Translations under genes and position numbers: made by a program
Notes under the pieces: model-generated
The model's input: only the letters and a program-made list of their open reading frames with translations
Database searches by the model: none
Told to the model about the DNA's origin: nothing
NCBI GenBank assembly: GCA_043228905.1
Contig: JBHGNT010000014.1
Span: forward strand, 11,966,001 to 12,030,000
From: Azolla caroliniana
Lineage: Eukaryota > Plantae > Polypodiophyta
Reading direction: 5' to 3'
Length of the DNA: 64,000 nt
In this document: positions 4,490 to 28,650 of the stretch, piece after piece
How positions within the stretch are numbered: the stretch's first letter is position 1
Layout of the letters: each line of letters starts with the position of its first letter

Positions 4490-4574
4490 ATAAACTGGTT
4501 TGCTTCCACATATTAACTTTGACACTTTGTAAGTTGTCTGAGCGGAAAAATAAGCTTTGAGTAGTCATGTATAA
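4490..4574 (-). pseudogene. Displaced 3' piece of the old Gypsy pol split by the DNA transposon
   Basis: Joining 27287 to 4570 on the minus strand reads [31 protein letters not shown], the Gypsy RT connection motif. Confidence 0.8.
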
Positions 4575-4600
4575 GGGTCGAAGCACGCTATGGTGTACCA
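4575..4600 (+). repeat. Left terminal inverted repeat
   Basis: Reverse complement of 27261-27286 with one mismatch; preceded by the ATAA TSD. Confidence 0.92.
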
Positions 4601-5098: not shown

Positions 5099-5347
5099 TC
5101 CACCAAATCGAGGCGGCATTGGAGGTTCCTTCCACCAAATCGAGGCGGCATATCCAACGCTCCCTCCACCATTGGAGGTTCCTTCCACCAAATCGAGGCG
5201 GCATATCCAAACGCTCCCTCCACCATTGGAGGTTCATTCCACCAAATCGAGGCTGCATATCCACGCTCCCTCCACCATTGGAGGTTCCTTCCACCAAATC
5301 GAGGTGGCATATCCAACGCTCCCTCCACCATTGGAGGTTCCTTCCAT
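5099..5347. repeat. ~53-bp tandem repeat, about 4.5 copies, upstream of the transposase
   Basis: Unit TCCACCAAATCGAGGCGGCATATCCAACGCTCCCTCCACCATTGGAGGTTCCT starts at 5131 and 5184, with further copies. Confidence 0.9.
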
Positions 5348-7125
5348 CCATTTTTTTATTTTCAGTACTAAAATGTTTCATTTCTTCATATTTCAATACT
5401 AAATTTTTAGAATTGACACTTGTCATATTTGATATGTAATTCTAATGTTTGAAACAAAATATTTCTCACTTTGCAGGCCACATTTAAAAACATTTGATTG
5501 TGTTTTCTTAGTTGAGTCTATATAACATTAACTACTTTCACAAGACACTTAATTTTTGTGGATAAATCTAGTGACCGAATGGGGGTTCCTAACGAGAGTG
5601 AGTTGTCAAGTAACTCATGCATATCTGAAAGGACTAAGAGACGAGTGGTTCTTCACATAGTCCGTTATTTGGTAGAAATAACGAAGAGATTTAGTGAAGA
5701 GGATCGTAGGGATATTATCTGTAGAGTGTTACACCATCAAAGTTTGAATGAAGACATGGAGAGAATAAAATTTAGGGACCAATGTGTTTCAGAAGAGATT
5801 GTGGAGTCTATGAAGTCATCCCTAGACTTAGTGAAAGGTGTAGAGAGCTTAGACAAACTTGTTGCAAAGAGGGCAGCCCTACACATGGTTGTGAACGGTG
5901 CGAGAGAAAAAAAATATAGTGATACTAAAGTTGCCTTAGCCCTGGGTATTCAAAGAAGGAACTTGAGGAAACATCGCCGAAATATACACTCAAGCAAATT
6001 CAAGTGGCTGGGGTTGGGACGTAGACGACGATGTGATGCCTTATCTCAAGAGATTATTGAGAAAGTGGATTCATTTTGGGCCAAAAATACGCGTGTCTCA
6101 CCAAATAAGAAGGACATGTGTAGACAACGAATAAGTCAGGGTAAGTACCAGATTCACCCTAGACACTTCTTGGAGATGACAGAGGTATTCCATTTTTTTA
6201 TATCAATTCACATTCCATAACTTTGCGTTTTGACCAAGTGTATATTAATGTTTGCTATATATATTGGTTGATGTAGGCTGAATTGTACATGAACTTTAAA
6301 GACCAACATCCAAGCTTGACTGTTGGATTCCGCAAGTTCCAAGGTTTGAAACCATTTTATGTTAGAAAATTAAATGAGAGGAATACATGTTGTTGTGTGT
6401 ACCATGTGAAGATGGACATGTTAAGGCTAGCAGTGAATGCAATGCATACTGATTCTAAGGGTATACAAGGGGAATTATGTGTCTGCACTTGTGAGATTTG
6501 TAGACCAAATGGGGAGGATAATAGGTGTAATGCACGAAACATGACTTATGCATCCGTTTCTGAGCTATGGAGGTCTTGTGTTTGTGAAAAAGAACCATCA
6601 TGTGAGTGGCATCGTCGTACATGTCTATTAAGAACGTGTAAGGTTTGTCCGCTACCATTATTTTGTAGGCAGGAGCTTGATTTGGGAAATAGTCATATCG
6701 TGAAATGGAAATATTTGCGACTGAAAATATTGGCAAGGGAGTTGTCACTAAGCGTATCAAGGAAGTATATAAGGAGACATGTGCTGCTACCCTTGTCTCA
6801 GAATTTAAGAAACAACTTGGGGAGTTCATTCCACATAACTTCCGGAGTTATTGGCAAAATTCACAGTTCAAGGAATGTATTAATAACTTACCAACGGGTG
6901 TCATCGTATCCATTATTGATTTTGCAGAAAACTATACATTTAAAGTTCAAAATGAGGTTCAATCAATGCATTGGTACAATGATCAATGTACAATACTTGT
7001 ACATATTTGCTATTGGAGGCAAGACGGTGAGTTACATAAGAAATCAATATTTTACATTTCAGATGATAAAAAGCATAATACACTATCTGTTCAACATTGT
7101 TTTAAGCTTCACCATGCAGATTTAT

Positions 7126-7459
7126 TGTTGAGCGGCAAGCTCAACCGGAGCCGGATCGGCTGAATAAGCCGGAGCCGGTAAGCGAGACGGATCGGGCGAA
7201 ACGGATCGGTATGACGGTGAGCAACCGAACCGGCATGCAGTGGAGGCCGGGTGCAATCCGTAACCGGAAGTCCAATCGGAAGCCTAGTATAGGATAGACT
7301 ACTAGGTAGCTATAGTCTCATAGTAAGTGTTAGATGCTCGTGTGAGCATTGAAATACATGGTACTTCTGTCAGTCCCAAGAGGACTTGTATAAATAGTGC
7401 TACTTAGCACAGTGTGTATATAGAGTCTTGATATAATTTTGAAATTGTGTTCTGCTCTC

Positions 7460-7541
<82 letters not shown>

Positions 7542-7580
7542 GTTCTCTGATTTACACTTCCGCAAACACTTACGTTTACA
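7126..7580 (+). repeat. 5' LTR of Copia, containing (CT)n
   Basis: Direct repeat of 19795-20229; followed by the tRNA-Met PBS. Confidence 0.96.
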
Positions 7581-10500
7581 TGGTATCAGAGCGCGAGGGT
7601 TGAGAACCTCTGCTGCAGACATTTACTCTTGAGAAGAAAACCCTAACAGGTCGAAAACAGACACAGTAAAAGACATGGATAGAGGCATGGCTACGTCGCT
7701 CCCGGTGGAGAAGCTCGACAGGAGCAACTACGCATCCTGGTCTTACAAGATGCACCAGTACCTGCTTGGACACGGGTACTGGAGTTATGTCGAAGGAGCG
7801 AATGATGCGGCGCCCGACTTGGCACACACGCACTTCCCGGTATGGGAACAGGCGGCAAGCAGGGTGATGTACTGCTTCGCGTCCAGTGTCGGCGATCAGC
7901 TCCTCAGCCACATCCGTGACGCCAAGACACCGAAGGATGCTTGGGGGAACCTGAAAAAGGTTTTCGCCGCAAGCACCACTACCCGGAAGCTGCAACTCAA
8001 ACAGGAGTTGAACAATGTTCGACAGAAGAACATGTCCGTGGCAGACTACACGGGCCGGATAAAGGAGATTTGCGACTCGCTCGCCTCTATCAATGTTACC
8101 GTAGAGGAAGACGAGATGGTGCAGGTATGTCTCGGAGGCCTGGCGTCCAAGTTCGGAGCGTTCCGGACTACGGTGTGTACAAGGGAGAATACCCCCTCAT
8201 TCTTCGACTTATAGTCGATGCTCCTTGTAGAGGAGAACCACGCCGGTGCATCTACCAGTGCATCCCCGGAAAGCCGAATGTTGTACACGGGAACAAATCG
8301 GCTCCGTGGGCGTGGTGGAAGAGGTGGGTCGGCACGCAATGGAGGCGGCCGGCAAGAGCAGGAACGGAGGCACTATGAGCGTGCCGACAGCAGTTCCGGG
8401 ACTTCCACAAGCAGGGGGAGTCAAGGCTGTGCCGGAGGCCGGCAAGACAAATCCGCTACGGAATGTTGGTACTGTGGCAAAAAAGGCCACAGGGAAAGTG
8501 AGTGCTGGAGAAAGCGTGCTGATTCGGACAAATCCGGATCCGGCAAGACCGGTAAGGATGGCCGGCAAAACTCGCACTACGCAAACGGATCAGGAGGATC
8601 CGGAACCGGAAAGGCCGGTAAGGGGCCAGCCTTGGTGATGAATCACAAGGCAAACTCAATGAAGAAGACCACTTCCAAAATGGAGGAAGTGTGGTATGTT
8701 GATTCCGGCGCGTCGAACCACATGACGAGCCACAAAGAGTGGTTCTCCTTTTTGGAGAAACCGGATCAACCAAGAGTAGTTGAAACCGGAGACGACACTC
8801 CTCACCAAATCGTGCACGTCGGAGAAGTCCCTCTAAGCCACGTCAGACAGAAAGGGAAGCTGATGAACGTATTACACGTTCCGACAATCACGAAGAACCT
8901 GGTTTCCGTCGGTCAGATTGTCGACCAGGGGATGCAGGTGCGGTTTACGCACCTCGGGTGCTTCATTGAGGATGAGGGCGAAGTCATTGCGCAAGGGCGC
9001 AGAGACGGGAGGATGTTTATCCTCAACACCAATGACTTTGGCACCACTCTGTTCACGAAACGACAGAAGGTCGAGTCGGACATTGACCTGTGGCACAAGC
9101 GGATAGGCCACGTCAACTACCGGAGGCTTCAAGACCTGCAAACGAAACAAGTCGTTTTTGGTTTGCCGAAGTTCAGCAGCCGGAGAGCCGAAATTTGTGA
9201 AGCCTGCCAACTTGGGAAGCAACACCGGCTTCCATTCCCCACCGAACAGAACCGGAGCCGTAACAAGCTCGATCTCATCCATTCGGATGTGTGGGGACCG
9301 GCACAAAGTGTAAGCCTTGGCGGGAGCCGATACTTCATCTCCTTCATCGACGACTATACACGACATACTTGGATCTACCTCATTGAGCGGAAAAGCGAAG
9401 TCTTCGACTGTTTCCGGAGCCTCCAGAAGATGGTGGAACGGGAATCGGAGAGGAAGATCAAATGCCTTCGGTCGGATGGCGGAAAGGAATATTTTTCTGG
9501 CCAATTCACTAGTCATCTGCAGCAGAAGGGAATTCGGCGAGAGTTCAGCTACAGATACACACTGGAGCAAAACGGTGTGGCCGAAAGGAAGAACCGGACA
9601 CTCGTCGAAGCGGCAAGGGCAATGCTGGAGGAGAAGAGCATGCCCCGGTTCTATTGGGTGGAGGCGGTCCAAACGGCCGTCTACATACAAAACTGCATTG
9701 GTGACAAGGTGTCAGCTCATGAGCTGTATTTCGGGTGCAAGCCGAACTTAAGACACCTTCGGATATTCGGCAGAATAGCGTATGTGCATGTGCCGGTTCA
9801 GAAGCGGAGAAAGCTGGATGCAAAATCAGAAAAATGCATCCTAGTCGGCTATGCTCAAGAGCAAAAGGGGTATAAGTGCTTTAACCCCCGGACGAAGGAA
9901 GTCCGAATTAGCCAGGATGTCGAGTTCGATGAATCGGCATCCTGGTACTCCGTACCGACTCCGACTTCCGATCCCGACCCAATGTCGGAAGATCAGGCCA
10001 GTGAGCCGGAATCAGCCCTGGCAGAGGATGATGAAGCCGGGACTCAAGATGAGAGTCCGGAATCGTTACGGTTGAGTGGACCGAACGAGCGACTGAGTCG
10101 GTTGGACCAGTCGGATGAAGAGACGGCAAGTGGTGGAGACTCTGCCATGCTCTCCCCGCGCAAGGAACCGAGGAAACGGTTCACGCGCAAAGAGAAAGGG
10201 AAGAGGAAGATGCCGGAATTCGAAACCGGCAACGATGAGTCGGATCGGTGCGTATCCGACTCCGGAAAGGAGAAAGGCGGATCTTCGGCAACGAAGACCG
10301 AACTGGCCAAGAAGGGCCTCAAATCAGGTGACGGTGCGTTGCGCCCATCAACCCGCCAGAAGGATCCCGTCATGCGGTACGGGTACAATGAATACATGGC
10401 GCATCATTATGCGTACATGACTAAGGTGACCGAAGTGCGTGAGCCGGAGAGCTACGCAGACGCGGCAAAGGACGCAAATTGGCGTGCCGCTATGGACGAA

Positions 10501-11755
10501 GAAATGCGGGCACTCGATGCCAACGAAACTTGGGACCTAGTTGATCCTCCCCGTCATTGTAAACCGATCGGATGCAAGTGGGTGTACAAGGTCAAGTACA
10601 ACGCCGACGGTTCTGTTAACCGGTACAAAGCCCGGTTAGTGGCGAAGGGATACGCGCAGACCCACGGAATCGACTACGACGAGACCTTCGCTCCTGTGGC
10701 GAAGATGACGACGGTTCGTGTGGTACTGGCGGTTGTTGTGGCAAGGGGGTGGCATCTTCACCAATGGATGTGAAGAACGCCTTCCTTCAAGGAGAGCTTG
10801 AAGAAGAAGTCTTTATGACTCAGCCCCTCGGATTTCAATCGGAGATGAACAAGTCGGTGGTATGCCGACTGAAGAAGTCGCTTTACGGCTTGAAGCAAGC
10901 CCCCCGAGCTTGGAACGCGAAGATCAGGCACCGGTTGCGTCAGCTGGGGTTTGCTGTCTCTAAGTCGGACTCTTCGTTGTTCATCCGGCAAGGCTCTGAC
11001 GGTCCGGTATGTTTACTCTTGTATGTGGATGATTTAGTCATCACCGGACCGGGTTGTCGGACGCATTCGAAATGAAGGACCTGGGGGACCTTCATTATTT
11101 TCTTGGGATCGAAGTGATCCGGACCCCTGACAACATATTGCTCTCACAACGACATTACGTGTTGAATATGCTGTATAAGTTCGGCATGACGGATTGCCGA
11201 CCTGTCTCCACACCCCTGGACCGGAACCAGAAGCTTTGTCCCAACTCCGGACCGGCCTGCAATGAGAAACAGTTCTGACAGGTTGTCGGAAGCCTGATCT
11301 ACTTAACCATCACCCGACCCGACATCAGCTATCCGGTCGGCATGGTAAGCCAGTTCATGCAGAAGCCGACCGTGGAGCACCTTCAGTGCGCACAACGAAT
11401 ATTACGGTATGTCAGCAACACTAAGGACCGGGGACTGCTATACCGGCGAGGTATACCCGAAGAGCTTGTCGGTTACACAGATGCTGACTGGGCCGGCGAT
11501 GCGTCTGATCGCCGCTCCACTTCCGGATACATGTTCTCCATAGGTAGCGTGGCCATTGCGTGGAGCAGCAAGAAGCAGCCCACAGTGGCTTGGTCAAGCA
11601 CTGAGGCTGAGGACCGGGCCGCTACCGTTGCCACTTGTGAAGCCATCTGGCTTCGACGACTGCTGCGAGACTTGCGGATCGAGGTACCGACCCCGATCCC
11701 GATTTACTACGATAACATGAGTAGCTTGCAGCTCGCCAGGAACCCTGTGTTCCAT

Positions 11756-12226
11756 TGTTATGTACACATAACGTTGGTGAGGGTAGGTCACTAATATTTA
11801 CATTAGTGAAGGGTATGTTCACTATTATTAAAAAGGGGACTAATGATTGGATAGAATGAATGATATGTGCATGCACTATCATGATTTAGACAACCAATGA
11901 ATAGAGAGCCTTTTAGAAAGGCACATCTATTCAAGGGGCCTAGGAAAAGGTATAAATATGAGGCTTAGCTACCCTCATAGGAATCACGTCGGAAGGTTGC
12001 TGTCGTAGACACCGGTGGTGCGGGCTAGGCTTTCGTCTCGACGATCGTGTTTATCTCTTCCAAGGTATTAGTCATCCTAATATCCGGCGGTATGGGACGT
12101 CGGTGGTAGGTTGGCTATGTCTAGATCATAGCTCGGGGGTGGTCGGGTGGAACGGGTTCTTCTATCCAATCTATTTTCTTCCTTATTACTTGATTTGGTC
12201 TATTGATTAGTAATAGACTCTTAACA
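11756..12226 (+). repeat. 5' LTR of nested chromovirus
   Basis: TGTTATG...TTAACA; near-identical to 18395-18865. Confidence 0.96.
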
Positions 12227-12664
12227 GTGGTATCAGAGCTTTTACTAACAATTTTTTTGTTGTTTTGATGTTTTTTGCGTGTGAGCGAGGGGGATCTAAC
12301 AAGGCTCGTCATGCTCTTCTCAGGATCAAAACAACACTCTAAACCTGGTATTCTTCTTTTTTGATCTCTTCTCTTTTTCTATTATGTGTTCTTTATGGTC
12401 GAATCAAATTGGTATTACGTTTTATTCTCTTTCTTTCTACCTCCTACTACGCTACGATTTTACTTATTATTATGCATCGGGCCGAGCGTGTTTGCACTAA
12501 TCGCACACGCTCAACTCATGGCCTTTTGCATATTGCGATATATATCCCACTCTCTCCTCTCTTGAACTCTTACGATAATAATTATTCTTGTGCATTGGGT
12601 CGAGCGTGTTTGCTCTAATCGCACACGCTTATCTCATGGCCGTTTTGCATATGATGTTGAGTAT

Positions 12665-12990
12665 ACCACTCTTCCTCTCTATTGAGCCATCACTTGGCCA
12701 ATTCTAAGGGATGATGTGGCCTTGACGAGGTGTATGTTGCCTACCTATGCCACTCTACTCTCTATTAAGCCATCAATTGGCCGATTCTATGGGATGTTGT
12801 GGCCTTGACAAGGTATATGTAGCTTACATATGCCACTTTCCTTTTTAATTAGCCATCAATTGGCCGATTCTAAGGGATTATGTGGCCTTGACGAGGTATA
12901 TGTCACTTACCTATGCCACTTTCCTCTTTAATTAGCCATTACTTGGCCGATTCTAGGGATATGTGGTGGTCTTGAGGAGGTGCATGTCAA
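12665..12990. repeat. 83-bp tandem repeat (about 4 copies) in the chromovirus leader
   Basis: AGCCAT anchor at 12685, 12768, 12851 and 12934. Confidence 0.85.
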
Positions 12991-13982
12991 CTACCCTAGG
13001 GTTTCGTATCTTAGGGCATGTTTGATTCCATACACCTAATTGTTGATTATTCTAATTAAATCTTAATTTCATAAGTATTGTTTCACTTATATGATTTTCT
13101 AGTAATTATTATTTACCCGCCCACAATTAACTCTCCTTTTTCCACTTCCTTTTCATGTATAAAGTATTTACATCGTTTATTTTTAATGTAACCTTTACGT
13201 GTAGACTATTTTTTTCGTATGGAGTGACTTGTTGAACGATTTTTTTTCAACGGGTCATCTAGGTTTAACTCTTATCATCAAGCCTTAGAAAACGAGTAAA
13301 ACCATATGAGTTCCCTTATTGATGTTTTACTCATGGATTTGAGTATTGCATCTTTGCGCACAACACCGTCATCACTTGTATCAATTTGTGGCTTATGTCA
13401 CAATTGTGCAAGTTATAACAATCATATTGGGATGTATATGTGCATACCTTGCACTTCCCATTTATTTGTGACATTGTTTTTTTCGTAGGTAACACATGGG
13501 TTCTTTTTTTTTTTACCCTTGTTTTCGTCACTACTTAACTCTTATGAGTAGTGCCTTATTTTATCATTTTATCATCACGTTTGCTTATTGCTCGCAAGAC
13601 TAGAATATTACTTGTGAGTGCACTTGTTTTTTCACGTAATACACTTTCTCGACCATATAATACATGATGGGTTGGCATTAATATAAGGCTATCTAGGAAA
13701 TTTCATTGATGTAAGAACCATGGTTGAGCCTCGGGGAGCCGCCATGATTACTCAAGATAGAGATCCGAGAAATACATCTTAGCTATGTTTTCCCCCATGG
13801 TTTTTAAAACACCATAGTGTTACCATAGTTATCGGATCTCGAATCACATCTCATATGTCTAGAGGGGTAAAGACATGAGATACTTTCTTGGATAAAGTTC
13901 TTTCAATCAAAATTTCAAGCATTCATTTTGCTTGTGTATTTTCTGAACCTCCTTATTTTATTGCATACCCACAGCGTGCATC

Positions 13983-16900
13983 ATGGAACAAGTTTGGAAC
14001 GCAGTTGGAACGATCTCTCCAAATGAGACCTCTCAACCCCAATCCGCATCTCGCACACAAGCTGAGATCACTATTGAGCAATTGCTCACTACTACCTTGA
14101 ATCAATTGGCCGAAATGAGACAGGCCAATATGGCATTGGAAAAGAAATTCCAAGAATTAACTATTGAGTCCAAGAAAGAAGGTGAACCTTCCTTCGTAGT
14201 CACGCCTTTCAAGGGAGATAAGAAAGAAAGAACCGAGGAGGCCATTAGCACTTGGCTTGGTCGTTGGGAGTCTCACTTTGAGCTTCATCCCAAGCCCGAT
14301 GCAGTAAAAATTGGTTATGTCGGTCGTGAGTTAGGTGGCCGAGCTGCTGCTTGGTGGCGTGGCCTAAGGACCGCAAAAAAACTTACCCACAACTTGGGAA
14401 GGTTTCGTTGATGTTTTTAAGAAACAATTCTTGCAGCCACCTTCTCAAACCGAACAAGCGCAACACTTGCTCACATTGTCTAGTAAGCCATTTACCTCTC
14501 TCGAGGATTATGTGCATCACGCTCGGACCCAGATCCAAAAATCGGGACTTACGGGTGAGAAATGGTTTGTCGCTTGTTTTTTAAATGGTATTCCCAATGG
14601 GGATTATCATTGGATTGTCCATGACAAGGACCCCACAACTTTCGAGGAAGCCGTCAACATTGTGCTGCGATACCATAGGACTTCCAAGAAAGACCACAAT
14701 AAACCTGAGTTCACCAAAACTCCGAATGTCAAGTTCATTGGGAAACGTAAGCAATCCAGTGACACTCTTGACCGCGACTCAAAGAAACCGAACCTCTTCT
14801 GTGCATATTGCAAGAAGCGGGGCCACACAAAGGATACCTGTCGTCGTCTTGAGAGGAAGTCAATGAACACCCCTCCTCAAGACAAATCTACGAGTCACAC
14901 AGGTGAGTCTTTTGATATTGTTGAAGTTCATACCAATCACTTAAGTTTATGTGAATGCACTTTTCCTTCACATTTACTTGGACCTAATGATTTACTCCGA
15001 GCAGTCGGATATATCAATGGAACACAAGCACATTTCTTGTTTGATTCCGGTAGTTCTCACAATTTTCTTAATGATCACTTTGTGCAGCAAATGGAGCTCC
15101 ACATAAACGCAAGTGATCATATCTATCAAGTTCACATGGCAAATGGAAACGTTCAATACATCAGTGGCATTGTTTGTCAACTGCCAATTCAAATAGATAC
15201 TTATTTGGAGAAGCTTGACTTTCATGTTATGAAATTACAATCCGCAGATGTCATTTTAGGATATCCTTGGTTTTTTAATAAAAACCCTTCTTTGTCCATT
15301 GATTGGGTTAATCACTCAATCACATTTGAACTTAATAATTGTAAACATTTTATTCAATGTTCCAAACTTCCTTCTCATTCACTTGTGTCTTCTAAATCTT
15401 TAAGTGAGTATTCTAGTTCATTAATTTATTCGTGTGTAATTGATCCTGCGGTTCAATTTTATTATTTTAATATTGACGCCACACAATTACCACATTTTGA
15501 GCAACGATTACTCGACTCTATTTTAGAGGATTTTCAAGATGTGTTTCATACTGAATTACCGCTTACTTTACCACCTAAACGTAATGTGGACCATCAAATT
15601 GAACTCATCCCTGGGGCTGCTCCTGTGAGCATTCCACCTTACCGACTTAGTCGATTAGAAGAGGATGAGATCGCTAAACAACTTAAGGAATACTTGAGTA
15701 TGGGCCACATTAGGTATAGTAAATCACCTTGGGGTGCGCCAGTTCTATTAGTCAAGAAGAAGGAAGGTTCGTGGCGAATGTGTATCAATTATCGCCGTTT
15801 GAATAAAATGACAATTAAGAATGCATATCCATTACCTCGTGCCGATGATTTGATTGATCGTTTGCACGGGGCTCGATATTTTACGAAAATTGACTTACGA
15901 ACTGGTTATCATCAGATTCGCATCGCCGAGGATGATATTCCTAAAACCACTTTTCGTACGCGCTATGGCCATTATGAGTTTTTAGTCATGCCGTTTGGGT
16001 TGACTAATGCTCCAGCCACATTCCAACAAGCGATGAATGATGTTTTCCGAGATCAACTCGGTGATTTTGTTGTCGTCTTCTTGGATGATATTTTGATATA
16101 TAGCCGTACCTTGCAAGATCATGTTCAACATGTTCGATTTGTTTTGCGAAAGTTGCGTGACAACTCTTTCTATGCAAAACATTCAAAATGTGACTTCTTC
16201 CAAAAATCTATTGTGTACCTAGGTCATTTAATTACAGAAAATGGCGTTGAAATTGAACCTTCTCGTATTGAAAAGGTTAAACTTTGGCCCATTCCTCGTA
16301 ATATTCGTGAACTTAGATCATTCTTAGGGTTTGTTGGATTTTTACGAAAATCAATTCGTAACTATTCCAAATTGACTACGCCATTAACTGACCTTTTAAA
16401 AGGTCATCCACGTAAGTCTGTCAAACCAATTTCATGGAATGAACAACTTGACAAATCATTTGAGACACTCAAGGAGCATGTGTGTCAAGCTCCCACTCTT
16501 CTATTACCAGACCCTTCTAAGCCTTTCTCAATTGAAACCGATGCTAGTGATTATGCTATTGGTGCCGTTCTTTATCAAGGTGGTCACCCTATTGCTTTTG
16601 AAAGTAAGAAGCTTGATGCTGCTCAATCTCGGTATTCGGTTCAAGAGAAAGAGTTGTTTGCGGTGATACACGCACTTAAAACATGGAGGCACTATCTCTA
16701 TGGAAATAAATTTGTGGTTACAACAGACCATCAATCATTAAAGTATTTTTGTGACCAGCCCGATCTTGTTGGTCGTAAAGGCCGTTGGGCTGACCTTATG
16801 CAAGATTTTGATTTTTCCATACGATATCGCAAGGGTTCTATGAACACCGTTGCTGATGCTCTTAGTCGCATTAAAGAAGTTAACATGCTTAGCTTCACGG

Positions 16901-18387
16901 AAATAAAATCTGATCTTTTAGATCACCTTCGAGGGAAATACCTTGATGACAGTTATTTCTCAAAATACTGGACGAAAGCCGAATCTGGTTTAGATGCCGA
17001 TACTAGCACCCTACCCTCGAAGGCGACCTTTCACATTACAAACGGTTTGCTCTACCGTAGTGGAAAGGTCTGTGTTCCAGATTTACCAAATGTTAAACAG
17101 AAAATTTTTCATGAATGTCATGATGCACCATCTGCTGGTCATCCTGGAATACAACGCACACTCGTTCTCATCTCGTGTACTTTTTTCTGGCCTAAGATGC
17201 GCTCTGACGTGCATAAATACGTAACTCAATGCTTACAATGTCAGATTAATAAGTCAGAACGACTTAAAGCTGCTGGTCTTTTACATCCCTTAGATATTCC
17301 CAACAATAAATGGGAAAGTATCTCGATGGATTTTATTGTTAGTTTACCTCGTACACAGAGGGGTCATGATGCCATATGGGTTGTCGTTGACAGGCTAACA
17401 AAATTAGCTAGATTTATTCCTACAAAAACCACGGTAACCGCTCAACAGTTGGCTTATCAATTTGTTGATGAGTTATTTCGTTTTTATGGATTACCGATGG
17501 ATATTGTTAGTGATCGAGATTCCAAGTTTACTAGTGACTTTTGGACTCAGGTCTTTAAGAAACTAGAAACTACGTTGAGCATGAGTTCCGTAGATCATCC
17601 TCAGTCTGATGGACAAACTGAACGAGTTAATCAAATTATTGAGGACATGCTTCGAGCTTATGTAGCAAAAACCCCGTCTAAGTGGGAGCAATACCTTCCT
17701 ATCTTAGAATTTGCCTATAATAGCTCTAAACATACATCCACTGGATATAGTCCTTTTATGTTGATGTATGGTTTTCAGCCACGTGCCCCAGTTGATGTCA
17801 CGATTCATCGTGATACATTAGACAGTACACGCAATTTTTTGCAAGACATGAACCAAATGTTGCATATTGCCAAAGAAAATGTCAAGACAGCTCAAGATCG
17901 TGCTCGATTTTATGCTGATCAGGATAGACGTCCTCGTGCATTTACTATTGGTCAAAAAGTTTTTTTGCGTGTCCCGACTGATCCTACGTCATTATCTACG
18001 GGCAAGTGCGCTAAGTTAGCCCCACGATATTGTGGCCCATTTGAAATCCTTAAGCGAGTTGGGTCATCTGCTTATCACCTTGCCTTACCTCGTAACGTTG
18101 GTATTCATCCTGTTTTTCACGTCAGTCGTCTAAAACCATTTTTAGGCTCTGGTGATAACACCATCACAATCCAAGATCTTGTAACATTAGAGGATTTTTC
18201 TTACAAACCTCATGTTCCTGAACGAATTCTTGATTCTCGTACTAAACGTTTACGTTCTAAAGAGATTCGGCTATTCAAGATCAAATGGATGGATAAACCT
18301 ATTGATGATGCCACATGGGAACGCGAGCATTCGCTTAAGGCACAATTTCCTCACTTTATATTGCAAGAGTGCAATCTTTTGAAGTAG
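13983..18387 (+). CDS. Gypsy Gag-Pol polyprotein (gag, CCHC, PR, RT, RNase H, INT, chromodomain) with one frame break near 14390
   Basis: ORFs 13983-14411 and 14431-18387 (1318 aa): CAYCKKRGHTKDTC, LFDSGSSH, FLDD, ETDASD, integrase HHCC and core, and a C-terminal chromodomain PERILDSR...IKWMDKPIDDATWE. Confidence 0.93.
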
Positions 18388-18394
18388 GGGAGTA

Positions 18395-18865
18395 TGTTAT
18401 GTACACATAACGTTGGTGAGGGTAGGTCACTAATATTTACATTAGTGAAGGGTATGTTCACTATTATTAAAAAGGGGACTAATGATTGGATAGAATGAAT
18501 GATATGTGCATGCACTATCATGATTTAGACAACCAATGAATAGAGAGCCTTTTAGAAAGGCACATCTATTCAAGGGGCCTAGGAAAAGGTATAAATATGA
18601 GGCTTAGCTACCCTCATAGGAATCACGTCGGAAGGCTGCTGTCGTAGACACCGGTGGTGCGGGCTAGGCTTTCGTCTCGACGATCGTGTTTATCTCTTCC
18701 AAGGTATTAGTCATCCTAATATCCGGCGGTATGGGACGTCGGTGGTAGGTTGGCTATGTCTAGATCATAGCTCGGGGGTGGTCGGGTGGAACGGGTTCTT
18801 CTATCCAATCTATTTTCTTCCTTATTACTTGATTTGGTCTATTGATTAGTAATAGACTCTTAACA
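18395..18865 (+). repeat. 3' LTR of nested chromovirus
   Basis: Direct repeat followed by the TCCAT TSD. Confidence 0.96.
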
Positions 18866-19794
18866 TCCATGCTCGCACAAAGCACATCGAGGTGCACTAC
18901 CACTTCGTGCGTGAGCGGGTCCTGAGCGGTGAAGTTGACCTACGGTATGTTCATACGGATCGGCAAGTTGTCGACATCTTCACCAAGCCGCTCGGATCGG
19001 ACAAGTTGCAGCACTTTACCGACATGCTTGGTATTCAGCATCTCGACGTGCCGCACTTGAGGGGGAGAAGCAAGGGCAAAGTCTCTACCGAAATGGGCAA
19101 AGGCCAAAAAACTATTGAACACGTCGGTAAGAGGAGAGCCGGAAGAAGAGGAGACAAGAAGATGAAGGAAGCCGAGTCGACAAAGGAAGTCGACACATCC
19201 GAACAGGTCGGAGCAAGCGGCTGTGAAGAAGAGTTGTGCACTCAGGAAGAGAAGTGCATGTTGTGCGGAGGTCATCACGACGGTACTGACCATGATGCAG
19301 AGTCGAATGAAGAATTCGATTTCGGTTCACCGGCTGAAGAAGCTGAAGGAAGCATGGAGAAGGCTAGGACTCGAAAGTGGTTCGATGTGGTGAGAGGCCT
19401 GAAGCCGGAAGTCGAATCGGAGTGTACCGATTCGGACAAGAGCTGGAACGAGTCGGAGACAGCTGACTCGGATCAATAGATGGATCCGGATGAGTCGGAT
19501 CGACTGAAGACCAAGGGGACACGGACACAGCGGAAGTCGATGCCATCGTGGGAGAACCGACGGATCGGCAAGCGCCGGAGTCACAGCAACGTGAGTGCTG
19601 AGATGGGCCTATTGAGCAGACATGTCAACCGAGAGGGTTGAGGCGCGCAGAACCGAAGGGGTCGCGGCAAACGGGACCAGACCGGACTAGGAGCGCGAGC
19701 AAGGCGAAGTGATGCCAGGAGAAGTCGGTTGGAAGAACCGACTGCCACAGAGGTCGACACTACGACCCCACCTCAGGTTGAGCTTGAGGGGGAG

Positions 19795-20124
19795 TGTTGA
19801 GCGGCAAGCTCAACCAGAGCCGGATCGGCTGAATAAGCCGGAGCCGGTAAGCGAGACGGATCGGGCGAAACGGATCGGTATGACGGTGAGCAACCGAACC
19901 GGCAAGCAGTGGAGGCCGAGTGCAATCCGTAACCGGAAGTCCAATCGGAAGCCTAGTATAGGATAGACTACTAGGTAGCTATAGTCTCGTAGTAAGTGTT
20001 AGATGCTCGTGTGAGCATTGAAGTACATGGTACTTCTGTCAGTCCCAAGAGGACTTGTATAAATAGTGCTACTTAGCATAGTGTGTATATAGAGTCTTGA
20101 TATAATTTTGAAATTGTGTTCTGC

Positions 20125-20189
<65 letters not shown>

Positions 20190-20229
20190 TGTTCTCTGTT
20201 TTACGCTTCCGCAAACACTTACGTTTACA
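19795..20229 (+). repeat. 3' LTR of Copia
   Basis: Preceded by the PPT, followed by the TTTAT TSD. Confidence 0.96.
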
Positions 20230-20519
20230 TTTATTTTCTCTAGGGTTAACCTTTAACCGTCATTGGGTTTGGTCTGATGGTGCTGCCTCGCAGTTTAAGG
20301 CAGCACGATCGTTCTACTTTATCGCCAGGTAATTTTTAATCCATATGTTTAGTACTTATCATGCAATGTGTAAGGAAGTAATTCTTGTGTTAGTGGATGC
20401 ATACTAATTATGTTTGTAACTATTAACAAACAGTACTATTCACATGGATGCATACTAATTATGTTTGTAACTATTCAAATCTTGCACTTGTGAATGGATG
20501 CATGCATACTAATTTTGTT

Positions 20520-21340
20520 TGTACTATGTTGTGTGTTGTATCTGTACTAAATCAGTATTTATTGAAGGATGTAAAGTACTCGTATTGTACTCTATAGTAT
20601 TGTCTGTCCTTAAGAGAATTGTACTAAGTAACTTTTAATCCATGTGAAGTGTTCTCCATAGACACATTGTACTATGTTGTGTTTACAAAAGGATGTAAAG
20701 TACTCATCTTGTACTCATAGTATTGTCCGTCCTTAAGAGAATTGTACTAATTATCTTTTTATCCATGTGAAGTGTTCTCCATAGACACATTGTACTATGT
20801 TATGTGTTGTATCTGTACTATGTTGTGTGTATAGAAGGATGTAAAGTACTCATATTGTACTCAGAGTATTGTCCGTGCTTAAGCGAATTGTACTAAGTAT
20901 CGATTAATCCATGTGAAGGGTTCTCCATAGACACATTGTACTATGTTGTGTGTTGGTTCTGTACTATGTTGTGTTTACAAAAGGATGTAAAGTACTCATC
21001 TTGTACTTATAGTATTGTCCGTCCTTAAGAGAATTGTACTAATTAAGTTTTAATCCATGTGAAGGGTTCTCCATAGACACATTGTACTATGTTGTGTGTT
21101 GTATTTGTACTATGTTGTGTTTACAGGAGGATGTAAAGTACTCATCTTGTACTCATAGTATTGTCTGTCCTTAAGAGAATTGTACTAAGTATCGATTAAT
21201 CCATGTGAAGGGTTCTCCATAGACACATTGTACTATGTTGTGTGTTGGTTCTGTACTATGTTGTGTTTACAAAAGGATGTAAAGTACTCATCTTGTACTT
21301 ATAGTATTGTCCGTCCTTAAGAGAATTGTACTAAATCAGT
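20520..21340. repeat. 146-bp tandem array in transposase intron 2
   Basis: CCATGTGAAG anchors at about 20640, 20763, 20909, 21055 and 21201; variants alternate. Confidence 0.9.
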
Positions 21341-22476
21341 ATTTACTCATGTTGTACTCATAGTATTGTACTCATCTTGTACTCATCTTTTAAACACACT
21401 ATGTGGTACTGATTATCTATTAATCAATGTTCAGCGTTCTCCATGAACACACTGTATTGTACTATGTGTTGTATCTATACTAAATCAGTGTTTATTGGGG
21501 GATGTAAAGTACATGTCTTGTAGTACTAATGATCTTCTAAGGAGGGTTGTGTTCTCTGTGGACACATTGTACTGTACTATCCGATATTGAACATTTTGTA
21601 CTATTTATCTGTTAATACATGTAGAGTGCTTTCCATGAACTCATTGTACTATACTTTGTGCTATATCCATACTAAGTTAGTATTAAATGGATGCCAGGTA
21701 CTGTTGGTTGACAACATAGTACTATTTATCTTTTAATAAGTGTAGAGTGTAGTACTCTCAATTGACAACGTAGTACTAATTTTGTTGGAAACCTGAGATA
21801 CCAAAGCAGGTATTTCTCCTTATTCAATATTCGTATGCAATGGAATTACTTCAGGTCTGGACATGGAAAAGGAGAGCATGATGGCGCGGGGGCTGTGATC
21901 AAACGTGCCCTTACAAGTGAGTAGTTGGATAATAATGGTGCTAAGTTACAAAATGCACATGATGTTGTGCAGTGGCTAACATGGAAGATGTCAAATGATG
22001 GCAAGAACAGATTGTTTGTTGAAGTTCACGTTGATGAGGTCGATAGAACTAAATCATATGGTTGTAAAACCGTGAAAGGCACACGCAGCACCCATTGTGT
22101 GTTAGGGTTTAGCTGCAAGGACACAACACAATTGTTACTCCGTAGTTTATCATGCTTTTGTTCCATGTGTCTAGATGAAGCTTGGGATAAATGCATCAAC
22201 CTATCAATCGTGGAGCCCTGGAAGCTGCAGAAGCTTGAGCCTGAACGACAAGATGATATTGAAGAGGATGTGCATTCAAACGATATTGTATACTACAACC
22301 AAAATCAAGACTTGGCAGTTTTATTGGAAGTTGGAGATCATTTTGCAGTGCTCAAATCTCCTCATTTTGCAGTGTTTTCAAAGTCTGACTTTTGACATGT
22401 ACCTGGGAGTGTGATAAATTCGTCTTCACGATCAGGTTTTGGACTCGTATCTCCGTCACCAAATATCATTTCGTCA

Positions 22477-25400
22477 TCAGCTAGTAACACAAGTACATGG
22501 TATTAGACAATGGATTAGGTTGACAATGCTCCGGACAGGTGAGAACTTATATGACTCACCATTGCATTCAACTTTGCCTTTCTTGCCGTTTCCATACAAC
22601 TTTCTTGCAGCATTTCTCTTCTTACTGGGCTCTATTTGTAAAGAAACTGCATTTCTCTTCTTAGTGGGCTCTATTTCTTGATGTTGACCGGAGCTTGGGG
22701 AATTTGTTTGTAGAAGCATATGTTCCACTGCTCCAATGGCCCTTCTCATACATTCATCCTCATCATAAAAATCATAGGTTATTGGTAATGATGGTCCCTG
22801 AACCTTGGAATGTGCAGCAGATATTGAGGGTTTAGGCACAGGGGCTGGTTGTTCCATTACCTTCCTTGGCGTGGAGTTGCTTGACACTACAACATTCATT
22901 GCAAGAAACAAAAAAACCTTAAATGTTAGTACCATCATCTAAAATATATAATGTAGGTCACAAGAGCTGCTTCCCATATTACACAATGTACCAATCATGA
23001 ACAATGTACTACTCACATAGTTCCTAAATTACTGAACTAGTACTAATAAGGAACATTGTACTGCTCACTTAGTTCACAATTTACACAAGTAGTACTAATC
23101 ATGCACAATATACACAAGTAGTACTAATCATGCACAATATACTACTCACTTAGTTACCAAATTACACAAGGAGTACTAATCCCGAACAATGTACCACTGA
23201 CTTAGTCAAATTAAAAAGTAGTACTAATCTTGAACAATGTACTACTCACTTGTTTCCTAAATTACTGAACTAGTATTAATAAGGAACAATGTACTACTCA
23301 CTTAGTTCCCAATATACACGATTAGTACTAATCATGCACAATATACACAAGTAGTACTAATCATGCACAATATACTACTCACTTAGTTACCAAATTAAAC
23401 AAGTACTAATCCCGAAAAATGTACCACTGACTTAGTCAAATTAATAAGTAGTACTAATCTTGAACAATGTACTACTCACTTAGTTACCAAATTACACAAG
23501 GAGTACTAATCCCGAACAATGTATTGCTCACTTAGTTCCCAATTTACACAAGTAGTACTAATCGTGCACAATATACTACTCACTTAGTTACCAAATTACA
23601 CAAGGAGTACTAATCCCGAACAATGTAATGCTCACTTAGTTCCCAATTTACACAAGTAGTACTAATCATGCACAATATACTACTCACTTAGTTACCAAAT
23701 TACACAAGGAGTACTAATCCCGAACAATGTACCACTGACTTAGTCAAATTACACAATTAGTACTAATCCTAAACAATGTACTACTCAACAATGTACCACT
23801 GACTTAGTCAAATTACACAATTAGTACTAATCCTACAAAATGTTCTACTCACTTATTTTCTAGATTACTGATCTAGTATTGATAAGGTACAAAACTAGTA
23901 CTAATAAGGAACAAAGTACTACTCAGTTCCCAAATTACAAAACTAGTATTAATCATGAGCAATGTACTAATAACTTAGTTCACAAAGTACAGAACTAGTA
24001 CTAATCATGAACCATGTAGTACTTACTAAGTACTAATCCAACAAATGTAGATTGGTATTTTGCACACAAGTAATACTAAACGTGATATGTGTTCTACACA
24101 CCTAGTTACATAACTTGTACTAATTACACCAACAGTATTAATCTTGAACAGTATTAGTACTAAACGTGATATGTGTTTGACACACCTCATTTCCAAATTA
24201 CAATAATTGTACTATTATTCAGCAATTTACTATACACCTTGTTCCCAAATTACATTACTAGTACTAATTCCCAAGTTACACAAACAATACTAACAGTCAA
24301 CAGTGTACTATAAGTATAGTGTTTACTCAACTAATACTAGGCAAGTTGCAATATAGATTGGACAATGTTGTACCTGGTTCCCTTTTAGTACTACTAATTC
24401 TGGAAAATATCCCTTCAACTACACATACCAATTATATATTAAGAGTACTGCCAATACTAACCCACATAATTAGGGTTCCACATAATAGTTGTTAGAGATT
24501 ACACTAAATTTGAAGTATGAATTGTGGCATACACTAGTTCTAGTCCAAATGTTAATTGACATCATATAATACAAACAATAGAATAGTAGAGCCACATACC
24601 GTACGGGTGTACTTTTAAACCCCAAGCATTGTACCACTCAGCCGCAATTGTAGTTTTACAGTCCATACATGTATTCTCTTTCTCAAAATGATACTTAGCA
24701 CATAGCACATGATATGTGTGCAAGCATGGTGTAATCACAACATCCATAGCCTCCAGCTTGAATCCGAGGCCACAAAATATACACCTGGAAGATTGCAAAC
24801 ACACTTATAATATATTAGCTACTCACTTATTTATACCAGAGAAGTAGAAATAAATAACTTTTAAAGCCAATACCGTGATATAGCTATACTAGTAATGGTA
24901 CTTTCTATACCACTTGGGTGCTCAATTACAGATGGACACAAAGTATCAAAACCATTTTGTTTTAAATCCTGCATCAAGCATGCAAGGTTCTCAGAATGCA
25001 ACTTTAAGGCTGACAACTTATTATCTATTTCTTCATGTGCATTCCTGCAAGTATCAAGGTCTCTCATCTGTGAACCTAATTGAGTGCCCATATTGTTCAG
25101 CTCTTTCTTCAACTCCTCTTTCAACACCTCACTTTCTGAATTTTGGATTGTCGATGCAATCCATTCATATGTAGTTTTTATTGAAGAAAATTTCTTTTCT
25201 GCCTGTATCTCAGCTGATTTAACTGCTTCCAAATCAGCAAGTAGTGCTTGTATTCTTGAGCTCATAGAAGCTATGCAACCGGCCATCATCTGTTCATGCT
25301 TTTCAGTCATTGTGGCCCGTACCTTTGCCTCTAGAACTTGGTGGACAGGTGTTGTAGCTGGAATATCCACATGAGAGGTTCCAGATGACTTCAAGCCAGT

Positions 25401-25868
25401 GTTGGTACTGGAGGACCCTTTGTAATGTTCTGACCGGTGCCGATTAAAATCTCCCCAATTTACGTCAATGCCACCTTGAACTTCACATGCAAAAGCACAT
25501 GCAAAAACAGTACCCACCTCATTGTTAGTGATTTGATTTGTATCATAAACATGTTCGTATCTCGTCTTCAATAAATTCATGTATTCCCTCTTCAAACCAC
25601 TTATGTGGAATCCTCGCCTTGTGTCGGGATGTGCTAACCCCTAGGTTTTTAACAACCACTCTCTCAGCTCTGGATAAACGCCAGGTCATGCTCGAAGGAA
25701 ATAATTCCATCCAAGAGGTGTGTCTCGACTGATGGAGTGGTACATCTTCTTTCTCTGTGTTGATGAATTCATCACCCTTTCTCTTGTGGGTGTCCTTCTT
25801 CCTTCCTTCACTGGTGTCTTCACTTTCTCTTTCATCAATGTCTTCTTTATGGGTGTCCTTCTCGTCAT
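22477..25868 (-). pseudogene. Second gene of the DNA transposon: basic N-terminus, coiled-coil and RING-H2 finger protein, about 530 codons
   Basis: Exons 25868-24874, 24784-24600 and 22886-22477 join in frame across GT-AG introns 24873-24785 and 24599-22887. RING-H2 pattern CIFC-x15-CLHTYHVLC-x10-CMDC. In-frame stops at 25686-25688 and 25641-25643. Confidence 0.75.
22990..24330. repeat. ~52-bp AGTACT-rich tandem array in the intron of the RING gene
   Basis: AGTACTAAT at 23502, 23554, 23606, 23658 and 23710, alternating between two variants (104-bp higher-order unit). Confidence 0.9.
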
Positions 25869-27260: not shown

Positions 27261-27286
27261 TGGTACACCATAGCATGCTTCGACCC
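27261..27286 (-). repeat. Right terminal inverted repeat
   Basis: TGGTACACCATAGCATGCTTCGACCC followed by the ATAA TSD. Confidence 0.92.
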
Positions 27287-28650
27287 ATAAACTTGTGATA
27301 GAAGTTTACGAATCCTAAAAAGCATTGCACATCTTGCAATCAACGTGGAGTCTACCACTTCAACACTGTTTGGACTTTAGCTGGATCCATAGAGATGTCT
27401 TCCGATGAGATGACATAGCCTAGAAATTCCACCTAATTACAGTCAAAGCCACACTTTTCCAGCTTTGCATAAAGACCATGTTCTCATGATCGTCTTAGCA
27501 CTAATAGTACATGAGAATCACGCTCCTCTTGTGACTTTGAATAAACTAGCAGATCATCCAAGTAGATGATCAAATAGATGTCCAAAAGATCTCGGAATAT
27601 AATGTGCTAGAAAACCGTTGGTGCATTGGTGAGACCAAATAGCATAACTTTATATTCAAAGTGCCCATATCGGTTGCGGAAAGTTGTCTTCCATTCGTCT
27701 CCCGGTCGAATCCGTTCAAGGTTATATGTTCCTCATAAGTCGATTTTTCTAAAACACTTTGCGGCATTAATTCCTTCTAAAAGACTCGAGATCAGGGGAA
27801 GTTCATACCTATTCCTAATGGTGACCTTATTCAAGCCACGATAATCCATGACTAGATGAAGTGATCCATCTTTGTTCTTGACAAAAAAAATAGGTATACC
27901 AGCTGGAGATTTTGAATGTCAAATGAACCCATTTGCCAAATTTTCCTCTATGTAGGCTCGAAGAAATTCAAGCTCGATTGGTGACAAGTTATAGATCGGT
28001 CCCCACAGTGGCTCTTTTCCGGGTTGTAAGTCAATGGAACAATCATACGGTCAATGATGAGGAAGAGTACTAGCTTTTACCTTATCAAAAACATCAGTGT
28101 AATGATGATACTTATTTAGAAGTTGAATTGTTGACTCCTCCTTAGTGGTGTTGGAAGGTTTCATTGATACTGTGAATACATGTGTTGCTTCCTTGCGTCC
28201 TTCCTCACGCAATTGATGTAACGAAATCATTGAAATCTTATGAGTAGATCCTCGAGGTTGTCAATACCCGATTTCTCTTGTTCTCCGATCTACGTCCGGA
28301 TTGTGTAATTAGAACCATGGTAACCCCAAAACAAGTGGATGCTCTGGACTACTAATTATATTAAATGATACTAAACATTCCAAATTATTTAGGACAACAT
28401 TAATCAGCTTTGACTCTTCTACAATATTTCCAGAAGCAATAGGACGACCATCAATGACTACTACAGAAGCTGGGCAAGGGAGTTTTCTTAAGGATATCTA
28501 ATGACCTTGGGCAAAATTATTATCCATGAAGCAAGAATTGGCTCCGGAATCTAGGAGTGCTAAGACATGTATTGGAGGATTACGTTTAGTACTAATTGTT
28601 ACTTGAGCTAGGAAGACATTGTTAACTTGATTGGAGGGAATGGAACCACT
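27287..28650 (-). mobile_element. Old degenerate Gypsy (Tcn1-like) protease-RT fragment
   Basis: The minus strand encodes ALLDSGANSCFMD, PLVLGLPW, IYLDDLLVYSK and FLGFVNFY, with many stops and frameshifts. Confidence 0.8.

Follow-up and report, generated by a model that had tools for sequence, protein, structure and literature searches.

A deleted, stop-carrying copy of a conserved RING-H2 accessory gene in a Sola2-type transposon of Azolla caroliniana

Results

A Sola2-type transposon nested among LTR retrotransposons

The window analysed here is a 64,000-nt stretch of the Azolla caroliniana assembly GCA_043228905.1 (contig JBHGNT010000014.1, positions 11,966,001 to 12,030,000, forward strand), to which all coordinates refer unless a locus is named. 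Self-comparison of the flanks delimited a Sola2-type DNA transposon at 4575-27286, bounded by 26-bp terminal inverted repeats (TIRs) and a 4-bp target duplication, with the following features.

4571..4574, unstranded: left target-site duplication ATAA (4-bp duplication in 9 of 9 two-ended copies)
4575..4600, + strand: left TIR, 26 bp, starting GGG and matching the right TIR at 25 of 26 positions
5579..6184, + strand: Sola2-type transposase exon 1, splice ends placed by eye
6277..7125, + strand: transposase exon 2, first part, with the DFAENY motif and, in the window copy, a frameshift near 6720
7126..20229, + strand: nested copia-type LTR retrotransposon with a 5-bp duplication (TTTAT), interrupting the transposase
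20235..20328, + strand: rest of transposase exon 2, with the SDG..QFK motif
20329..21809, + strand: transposase intron of 146-bp tandem units, with 12 AGTACT versus 0.47 expected
21810..22364, + strand: transposase last exon, with the GHGKGEHDG motif, truncated by a deletion and ending at a chance stop (22393-22395)
27261..27286, - strand: right TIR, inverted repeat of the left TIR
27287..27290, unstranded: right target-site duplication ATAA, its flank being part of a gypsy-type reverse transcriptase

Gypsy-type reverse transcriptase sequence was read on either side of the element, which fits an insertion of the Sola2 element there. Four layers of nesting can be distinguished, namely the gypsy-type reverse transcriptase split by the Sola2 copy, the copia-type element, and a second LTR element at about 11756-18700 inside the latter. 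The LTRs of the copia-type element are 98% identical, and those of the inner element are identical over 300 nt. A G+C-rich 53-bp tandem repeat occupies 5117-5346, in the 5′ part of the element upstream of the transposase. The window transposase is broken in three ways, by the frameshift, the 13-kb LTR nest and the deletion.

The transposase, encoded on the + strand, gave no useful Pfam match; its homologues bearing names come from Klebsormidium and Calypogeia. Sola2 TIRs have 5′-GRG ends, and the TIRs start with GGG in lineages A and C (defined below), consistent with this rule. In a comparison made by eye, the transposase motifs of an intact copy agreed with the published Sola2 alignment (Additional file 10 of PMC3627910, the part of that source used here), including the DFAENY..Q.E.QS.HW, SDGA.SQFK and W.(F/Y)F...HGK...DG.G...KR motifs and an upstream C/H cluster. 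The short TIRs and 4-bp target duplication likewise match Sola elements, which generate 4-bp duplications according to the relevant passages of PMC10741241.

A five-exon accessory gene convergent with the transposase

On the opposite strand, an accessory gene begins with an ATG at 25868, and its exons 1-3 join in frame through GT-AG introns.

24874..25868, - strand: accessory exon 1, with TP-x-K/R repeats, a helical N-domain and a predicted coiled coil; two stops
24785..24873, - strand: intron 1, GT-AG, 89 nt, spliced here in 4 poly(A) reads from a relative's element
24600..24784, - strand: exon 2, encoding the RING-H2 (C3H2C3; dN/dS 0.19)
22887..24599, - strand: intron 2, of 52-bp tandem units, enriched in AGTACT and TAGTACTA
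22560..22886, - strand: exon 3, 327 nt, of low complexity with basic KKR clusters
22481..22559, - strand: intron 3, GT-AG, 79 nt, taken as coding in a preliminary description of this DNA
22373..22480, - strand: remaining 5′ part of exon 4 (255 nt in intact copies)
22364..22373, unstranded: junction left by an internal deletion of ~2.7 kb; its 8-nt filler duplicates nearby sequence

In intact copies the gene has five exons (1019, 185, 327, 255 and about 1028 nt) encoding a 937-aa product, in which basic TP repeats, a helical domain of ~100 aa, a coiled coil, the RING-H2 and an acidic tail follow one another. The preliminary description had joined three exons in frame through canonical introns; this holds for exons 1-3, but its third exon ran on through intron 3, where read-through in lineage B hits a stop immediately. 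The 81 bp that it had placed between the two convergent stops is correct as arithmetic (TGA at 22479-22477 versus TGA at 22393-22395), but the stops lie about 1.1 kb apart in undeleted copies. This short spacing is an artefact, because it results from reading through intron 3 and from the ~2.7-kb deletion, which takes the last ~110 aa of the transposase, the spacer, most of exon 4 and exon 5.

Exon 1 of intact copies encodes the N-domain at about residues 59-158 and the predicted coiled coil at about residues 191-312. The TP-x-K/R repeats at its start number four in intact copies and three in the window copy (25868-25770), in which a 24-bp in-frame loss falls within them. An alternative N-terminal frame (109 aa, acidic, 25872-25546) was dropped, the indel being 24 bp and the frame first described being open in the family. 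Two premature stops reported earlier are present, at 25688-25686 and 25643-25641, and both are rare in the family, the non-stop allele being carried by 29 and 28, respectively, of the 30 aligned copies. These stops (25688, 25642) are transitions at CG and CHG sites, matching a family-wide excess. The other protein features reported for this copy, i.e., a basic TP-rich start, a VNWGDF segment (VNWEDF in the family), a helical region and a C3H2C3 RING, were all recovered. With its deletion and its two stops, the window gene is a broken copy of a second gene conserved in these Sola2 transposons.

Element copies across the genome

A DNA search with exons 1-2 returned 358 candidate places, and the family analysis is based on the 40 best-matching of these (95-100% identity), which lean young because best matches were chosen. 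For the RING exon, at least 150 copies exist in the genome (150 scored places among 802 candidates). The transposase was convergent with the accessory gene in 37 of the 40 copies, the remaining three having no transposase within the fetched stretch, which included the right TIR for 35 copies. All five exons could be located in 34 of the 40, and the accessory frame was open from start to stop in half of these (17/34). Every copy fetched with both ends (9/9, lineage A) had a 4-bp duplication, and these elements measured 8.4-12.3 kb. One copy (L015+L044) combined open transposase frames with an intact accessory gene. Lineage A looks recently active, as 13 of 31 copies differ from the majority sequence by no more than 0.17% across exons 1-2.

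Further open reading frames accompany some copies. In subfamily A1, the spacer separating the two stops holds ORFs of 188 and 84 aa on the accessory strand (L059:3638-4482), a segment missing from the window copy. They had no Pfam match under E 0.1 and no counterpart in B or A2 copies, were open in 15 of 32 scored copies (some with in-frame indels) with most others sharing one +7 frameshift, and were covered in patches by poly(A) reads of a relative. These ORFs are possibly a captured host fragment.

Three lineages share the accessory gene under purifying selection

The convergent accessory gene is common to three lineages, A, B and C. Between A and B, transposases are about 84% identical and accessory exon 1 about 53-64%, the four introns are retained, and intron 3 sits at the same place. 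The lineage C transposase is 36-47% identical, and lineage C has its own, related TIRs with a 4-bp duplication in 6 of 6 copies, one of them within an AG microsatellite. Its convergent gene keeps the N-domain motif and the RING (41% identity, E 3e-8 to 2e-6). N-domain identity is 58-63% for A versus B and 17% for C versus A. Lineage C also looks recently active, with at least 150 matches at 94-99% identity. Three more candidate loci considered as new lineages proved to be C-type (two) and A-type (one).

The accessory gene is under purifying selection. The preliminary description had proposed a dN/dS comparison, which gave 0.33 for A versus B (95% bootstrap interval 0.24-0.44; Nei-Gojobori method on majority sequences, 401 codons), and single-copy changes within A gave 0.71, which we take as the near-neutral baseline of this method. 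The corresponding A versus B value for the transposase was 0.16. Along the accessory protein, dN/dS was 0.19 for the RING, 0.19 for the coiled coil, 0.38 for the N-domain, 0.54 for the basic start and 0.88 for the linker, and the RING was the best-conserved part (80% identity, A versus B).

The carboxy-terminal region varies among lineages. The A and B proteins have a poorly conserved acidic tail followed by SDDE-x-PL-x-x-L and a basic stretch (L059:3400-3523; L071 near 5400-5520), and the lineage C protein also has a basic C-terminal stretch. Lineage C carries in addition an ORF of its own further downstream, which encodes an FCP1/NIF-like phosphatase domain (L104:1141-2277; Pfam E 7e-7, above cut-off), whose product is likely a pseudophosphatase because the first catalytic Asp is replaced by Glu in 6 of 6 copies.

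Homologues beyond this genome were found with a profile of six N-domains, which identified 57 proteins among 1.84 billion, most of them short fragments; a single-sequence query with exon 1 against longer proteins gave no match. Among 30 homologues looked up, 11 carry an organism name, in all cases Adiantum, and the comparison with them was made at the protein level. Across the family, the conserved N-domain is the part that stays constant. Homologue P0064 has the N-domain, coiled coil and RING-H2 in the order seen in A, with 26% identity to A over all three. A RING-like motif is visible in 3 of the 57 homologues, and two others finish in a phosphatase-like segment in place of the RING. An Atlas search returned no usable N-domain match and, for P0064, only generic RING clusters scoring under 0.9. 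A transposase piece suspected in the Adiantum protein P0075 received no support from BLASTP.

The preliminary description had named three outcomes that would speak against it: a one-off capture, absence from other element copies, and neutral evolution. None was found, and therefore a transposon-encoded accessory gene, multi-copy, convergent with the transposase in three lineages and under purifying selection, is supported.

Domain organization and predicted structures

The RING-H2 of window exon 2 has the spacing C-x2-C-x15-C-x-H-x2-H-x2-C-x10-C-x2-C, and all eight of its zinc-binding residues recur in A, B, C and P0064. The window RING matched Pfam zf-RING_2 at 24.3 bits (E 3.7e-5; gathering cut-off 27.3), and P0064 matched zf-RING_11 at 27.3 bits (cut-off 27). 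The accessory RING resembles RING-H2 E3 ligases (PF13639) in its zinc ligands, C3H2C3 spacing and preceding coiled coil, but differs in falling below the Pfam cut-off and, in lineage C, in finishing with C-x3-C. Several E2-contact residues usual in RINGs are replaced, with His, Met and Lys at positions commonly occupied by Trp, Pro and Arg, and the usual contacts are only partly matched.

Upstream of the RING, predictions give an N-domain that is compact and helical, then a long coiled coil. The N-domain model comprises five helices (mean pLDDT 86.6), and the P0064 model consists of the N-domain, two long helices and the RING (mean pLDDT 71.6, pTM 0.39). The structure search suggested in the preliminary description, run on the N-domain, gave this confident model and no fold match: the best E value was about 1 with Foldseek against PDB and viral sets, and the best Z score was 2.9 with VIA-align against PDB. 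The few weak rows that corresponded to DNA-binding domains (Z 2.0-2.4) were not counted as evidence. A fold search with P0064 returned generic coiled coils only, and a PDB sequence search coiled-coil noise only. The N-domain fold may be novel, although empty searches of this kind are no proof of it.

Residues 1-58 carry a net charge of +14, and the N-domain is near neutral (+1). The TP-x-K/R repeats within the basic start match the consensus of CDK targets and also resemble DNA-binding repeats of the SPKK type. A profile comparison (hhalign) of the N-domain with Sola2-type transposases indicated no relation (probability 0.2%). A complex prediction for the lineage C transposase with its N-domain, run without alignments, scored 0.00 and speaks neither for nor against an interaction.

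Transcripts and mutational signature

Expression was surveyed in three poly(A) runs (~12% of each), in which reads from these elements were very sparse and came from another genotype. Fifteen reads overlapped exons 1-2 and the region upstream in part. In run X4, four reads join the RING exon, at the predicted acceptor, to a diverged exon-1 end, in frame. Allowing up to one mismatch, we found no counterpart of this exon-1 end in the genome, and it equals the end of homologue P0051, so the reads speak for splicing of intron 1 in a relative only. Among the joints listed, none spanned intron 3 or intron 4, and read coverage did not include intron 2. An intact copy drew 143 poly(A) reads over its 3′ half, many of them partial; these followed the strand of the accessory gene first and then that of the transposase, with a few opposite-strand exceptions in run X6. 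For the window stretch itself, none of the runs listed showed confirmed RNA.

Transitions at CG and CHG sites reached 18.6-19.9 per 1,000 site-copies, versus 2-3 elsewhere, and on account of this excess we consider the Sola2 family to be normally methylated.

Lineage-specific palindrome arrays in introns

Within the 9.6-kb element we counted 42 copies of the palindrome AGTACT, versus 15 in the remaining 54 kb of the window, counts of this kind being inflated by tandem amplification. Accessory intron 2 contains 25 AGTACT (0.52 expected) and 16 TAGTACTA (0.06 expected), and both lineage B introns are enriched as well (12 AGTACT versus 0.27 expected and 21 versus 0.66). Overall, the enrichment of AGTACT amounts to 25- to 48-fold across the four intronic arrays from A and B, between which a single 23-bp hit is the only BLASTN similarity. 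The arrays of lineage C instead use TAGCTA/AGCTAATTAGCT, with 205 TAGCTA and 5 AGTACT, whereas lineage A has 2 TAGCTA; this co-variation of motif and protein compares two clades only. Most AGTACT copies are internal, in introns far from the element ends, but the motif also adjoins both TIRs (4605, 4633, 4651 and 27237).

A comparison of A1 with six A2 copies gave no sign that the motifs are conserved beyond the rest of the introns: 62 of 302 motif bases (0.205) had changed, versus 502 of 3566 other intron bases (0.141), in tandem arrays that align poorly.

Discussion

Accessory genes have been described in Sola elements before, namely Fanzor proteins as passengers of Sola2 (PMC3627910, in the portion consulted) and a ParB-like/amino-methyltransferase fusion in the Sola1 element Sola1-1_Ec32 of Ectocarpus (PMC12477816). 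The gene described here shares with the latter, as presented in the main text of that paper, its place opposite the transposase strand and a proposed action on the element's own DNA, but differs in its domains and in belonging to a Sola2-type element; neither "RING" nor "ubiquitin" occurs in that main text. What distinguishes the present elements from other Sola2 is a conserved, spliced RING-H2 second gene together with intronic palindrome arrays. No RING accessory gene of Sola elements was described in the titles and abstracts searched, although Repbase or supplements (the Ectocarpus TE library, fern genomes) could hold one. The main text of the Arabidopsis atlas of element products contains no whole-word "RING" (PMC13547354), and a survey of DDE elements yielded no passage on the terms searched (10.1101/2021.09.26.461848).

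The closest parallels in organization come from two other superfamilies. Like VANC of Arabidopsis VANDAL elements, as described in excerpts of PMC5735166, the accessory protein combines a conserved domain with a variable peptide-repeat region, and family-specific motifs lie in intronic tandem repeats. However, VANC belongs to a Mutator-like element, and no RING is described for it in those excerpts; its binding and demethylation have been demonstrated (PMC5735166), whereas for the present protein both are hypothetical. Neither exon 1 nor 45 aligned members gave a DUF1985 or DUF287 Pfam match. TnpA of Spm/CACTA is likewise a second element-encoded protein tied to clustered, family-specific motifs, but the sections available of 10.64898/2026.08.24.746577 present it as transposase-derived and as binding termini, whereas the motifs here are mostly internal and the accessory protein has no transposase profile match. 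The element ends and duplication are not CACTA-like either, and the accessory protein belongs to neither VANC nor TnpA.

We tentatively propose, at somewhat less than an even chance, that the accessory product could be a self-targeting DNA-binding RING protein acting on the palindrome arrays of its own element. The N-domain and basic TP repeats would bind TAGTACTA, a step that we rate as nearly an even call, even though the absence of a match between the N-domain and any known DNA-binding fold counts against it. The coiled coil would likely turn the protein into a dimer, a form that would suit a palindrome. About the RING we see roughly an even chance of being an active E3 that would ubiquitinate proteins bound at the element. 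By analogy with VANC or TnpA, the outcome might be local silencing relief or activation, although this last step is rather doubtful; because the family shows a CG/CHG methylation mutation pattern, any anti-silencing effect would be conditional. In its fullest form, the proposal would describe a ubiquitin ligase that binds DNA sequence-specifically and has a new fold at its core, reading a family-specific intronic palindrome and ubiquitinating chromatin or silencing proteins, as an anti-silencing system independent of VANC with a phosphatase-like effector in sister lineages, and this composite picture is quite improbable.

Other readings place the protein at the transposition reaction or away from element DNA altogether. 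As a transposition cofactor, in the manner of TnpA in CACTA elements or the second protein of Harbinger, it might bind element DNA or the transposase, with a RING that would be structural or self-regulating and may turn over the transposase. This reading, which we consider unlikely, draws on a tail-to-tail two-gene layout that persists although the transposases are only 36-47% identical, on the AGTACT sites beside both TIRs, and on the TnpA-TnpD complexes modelled in the main text of PMC13547354. It sits poorly with motif copies located mostly in introns remote from the ends and with an N-domain unrelated to the transposase by profile, unlike the reported transposase origin of TnpA, and the consulted portions of the literature on other Sola2 elements describe no such partner. 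The transposase could itself be an alternative binder of the motifs (10.64898/2026.08.24.746577, in the sections available), as it might be if the accessory protein were an E3 ligase working off element DNA. On that reading, which takes up the ligase aimed at silencing factors or the transposase of the preliminary description, the N-domain would recognise a substrate of the host, for instance a silencing factor, and the arrays would be bound by the transposase or be by-products of repeat growth.

A substrate domain, a coiled coil and a RING form a common E3 build. Together with the RING being the best-conserved part of the protein and with the negative motif-conservation test, this argues for an off-DNA ligase, yet one palindrome is shared by four arrays that are otherwise unrelated and gives way to another when the lineage changes, some homologues keep the N-domain without a RING or with a phosphatase-like part, and our searches found no substrate evidence for the accessory RING; we likewise regard an off-DNA ligase as unlikely. 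Capture from the host, with the gene travelling as a passenger that has no role for the element, is very improbable and largely refuted. These elements do pick up cargo (the A1 extra ORFs, the FCP1-like ORF of lineage C), and N-domain homologues from other species were compared at the protein level, apart from their genomic context. A passenger would nevertheless be hard to reconcile with the constraint between lineages (dN/dS 0.33), with four introns kept in A and B, with the same position and strand in three lineages, and with genome searches in which every match opened, among the at least 150 listed, was an element copy.

How anti-silencing proteins act once bound to DNA is an open question (PMC5735166, Discussion section). 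Under the self-targeting model, a transposon protein combining a candidate motif-binding domain with a RING would offer a direct, testable biochemical route, and the young, intact natural copies, together with a second lineage that uses a different motif, allow a clean swap experiment. The N-domain is also of interest in its own right, as a confidently modelled domain without a Pfam family or solved-fold match in the searches run. Even if the self-targeting model fails, these elements carry a conserved accessory gene of a little-studied transposon superfamily in seed-free plants.
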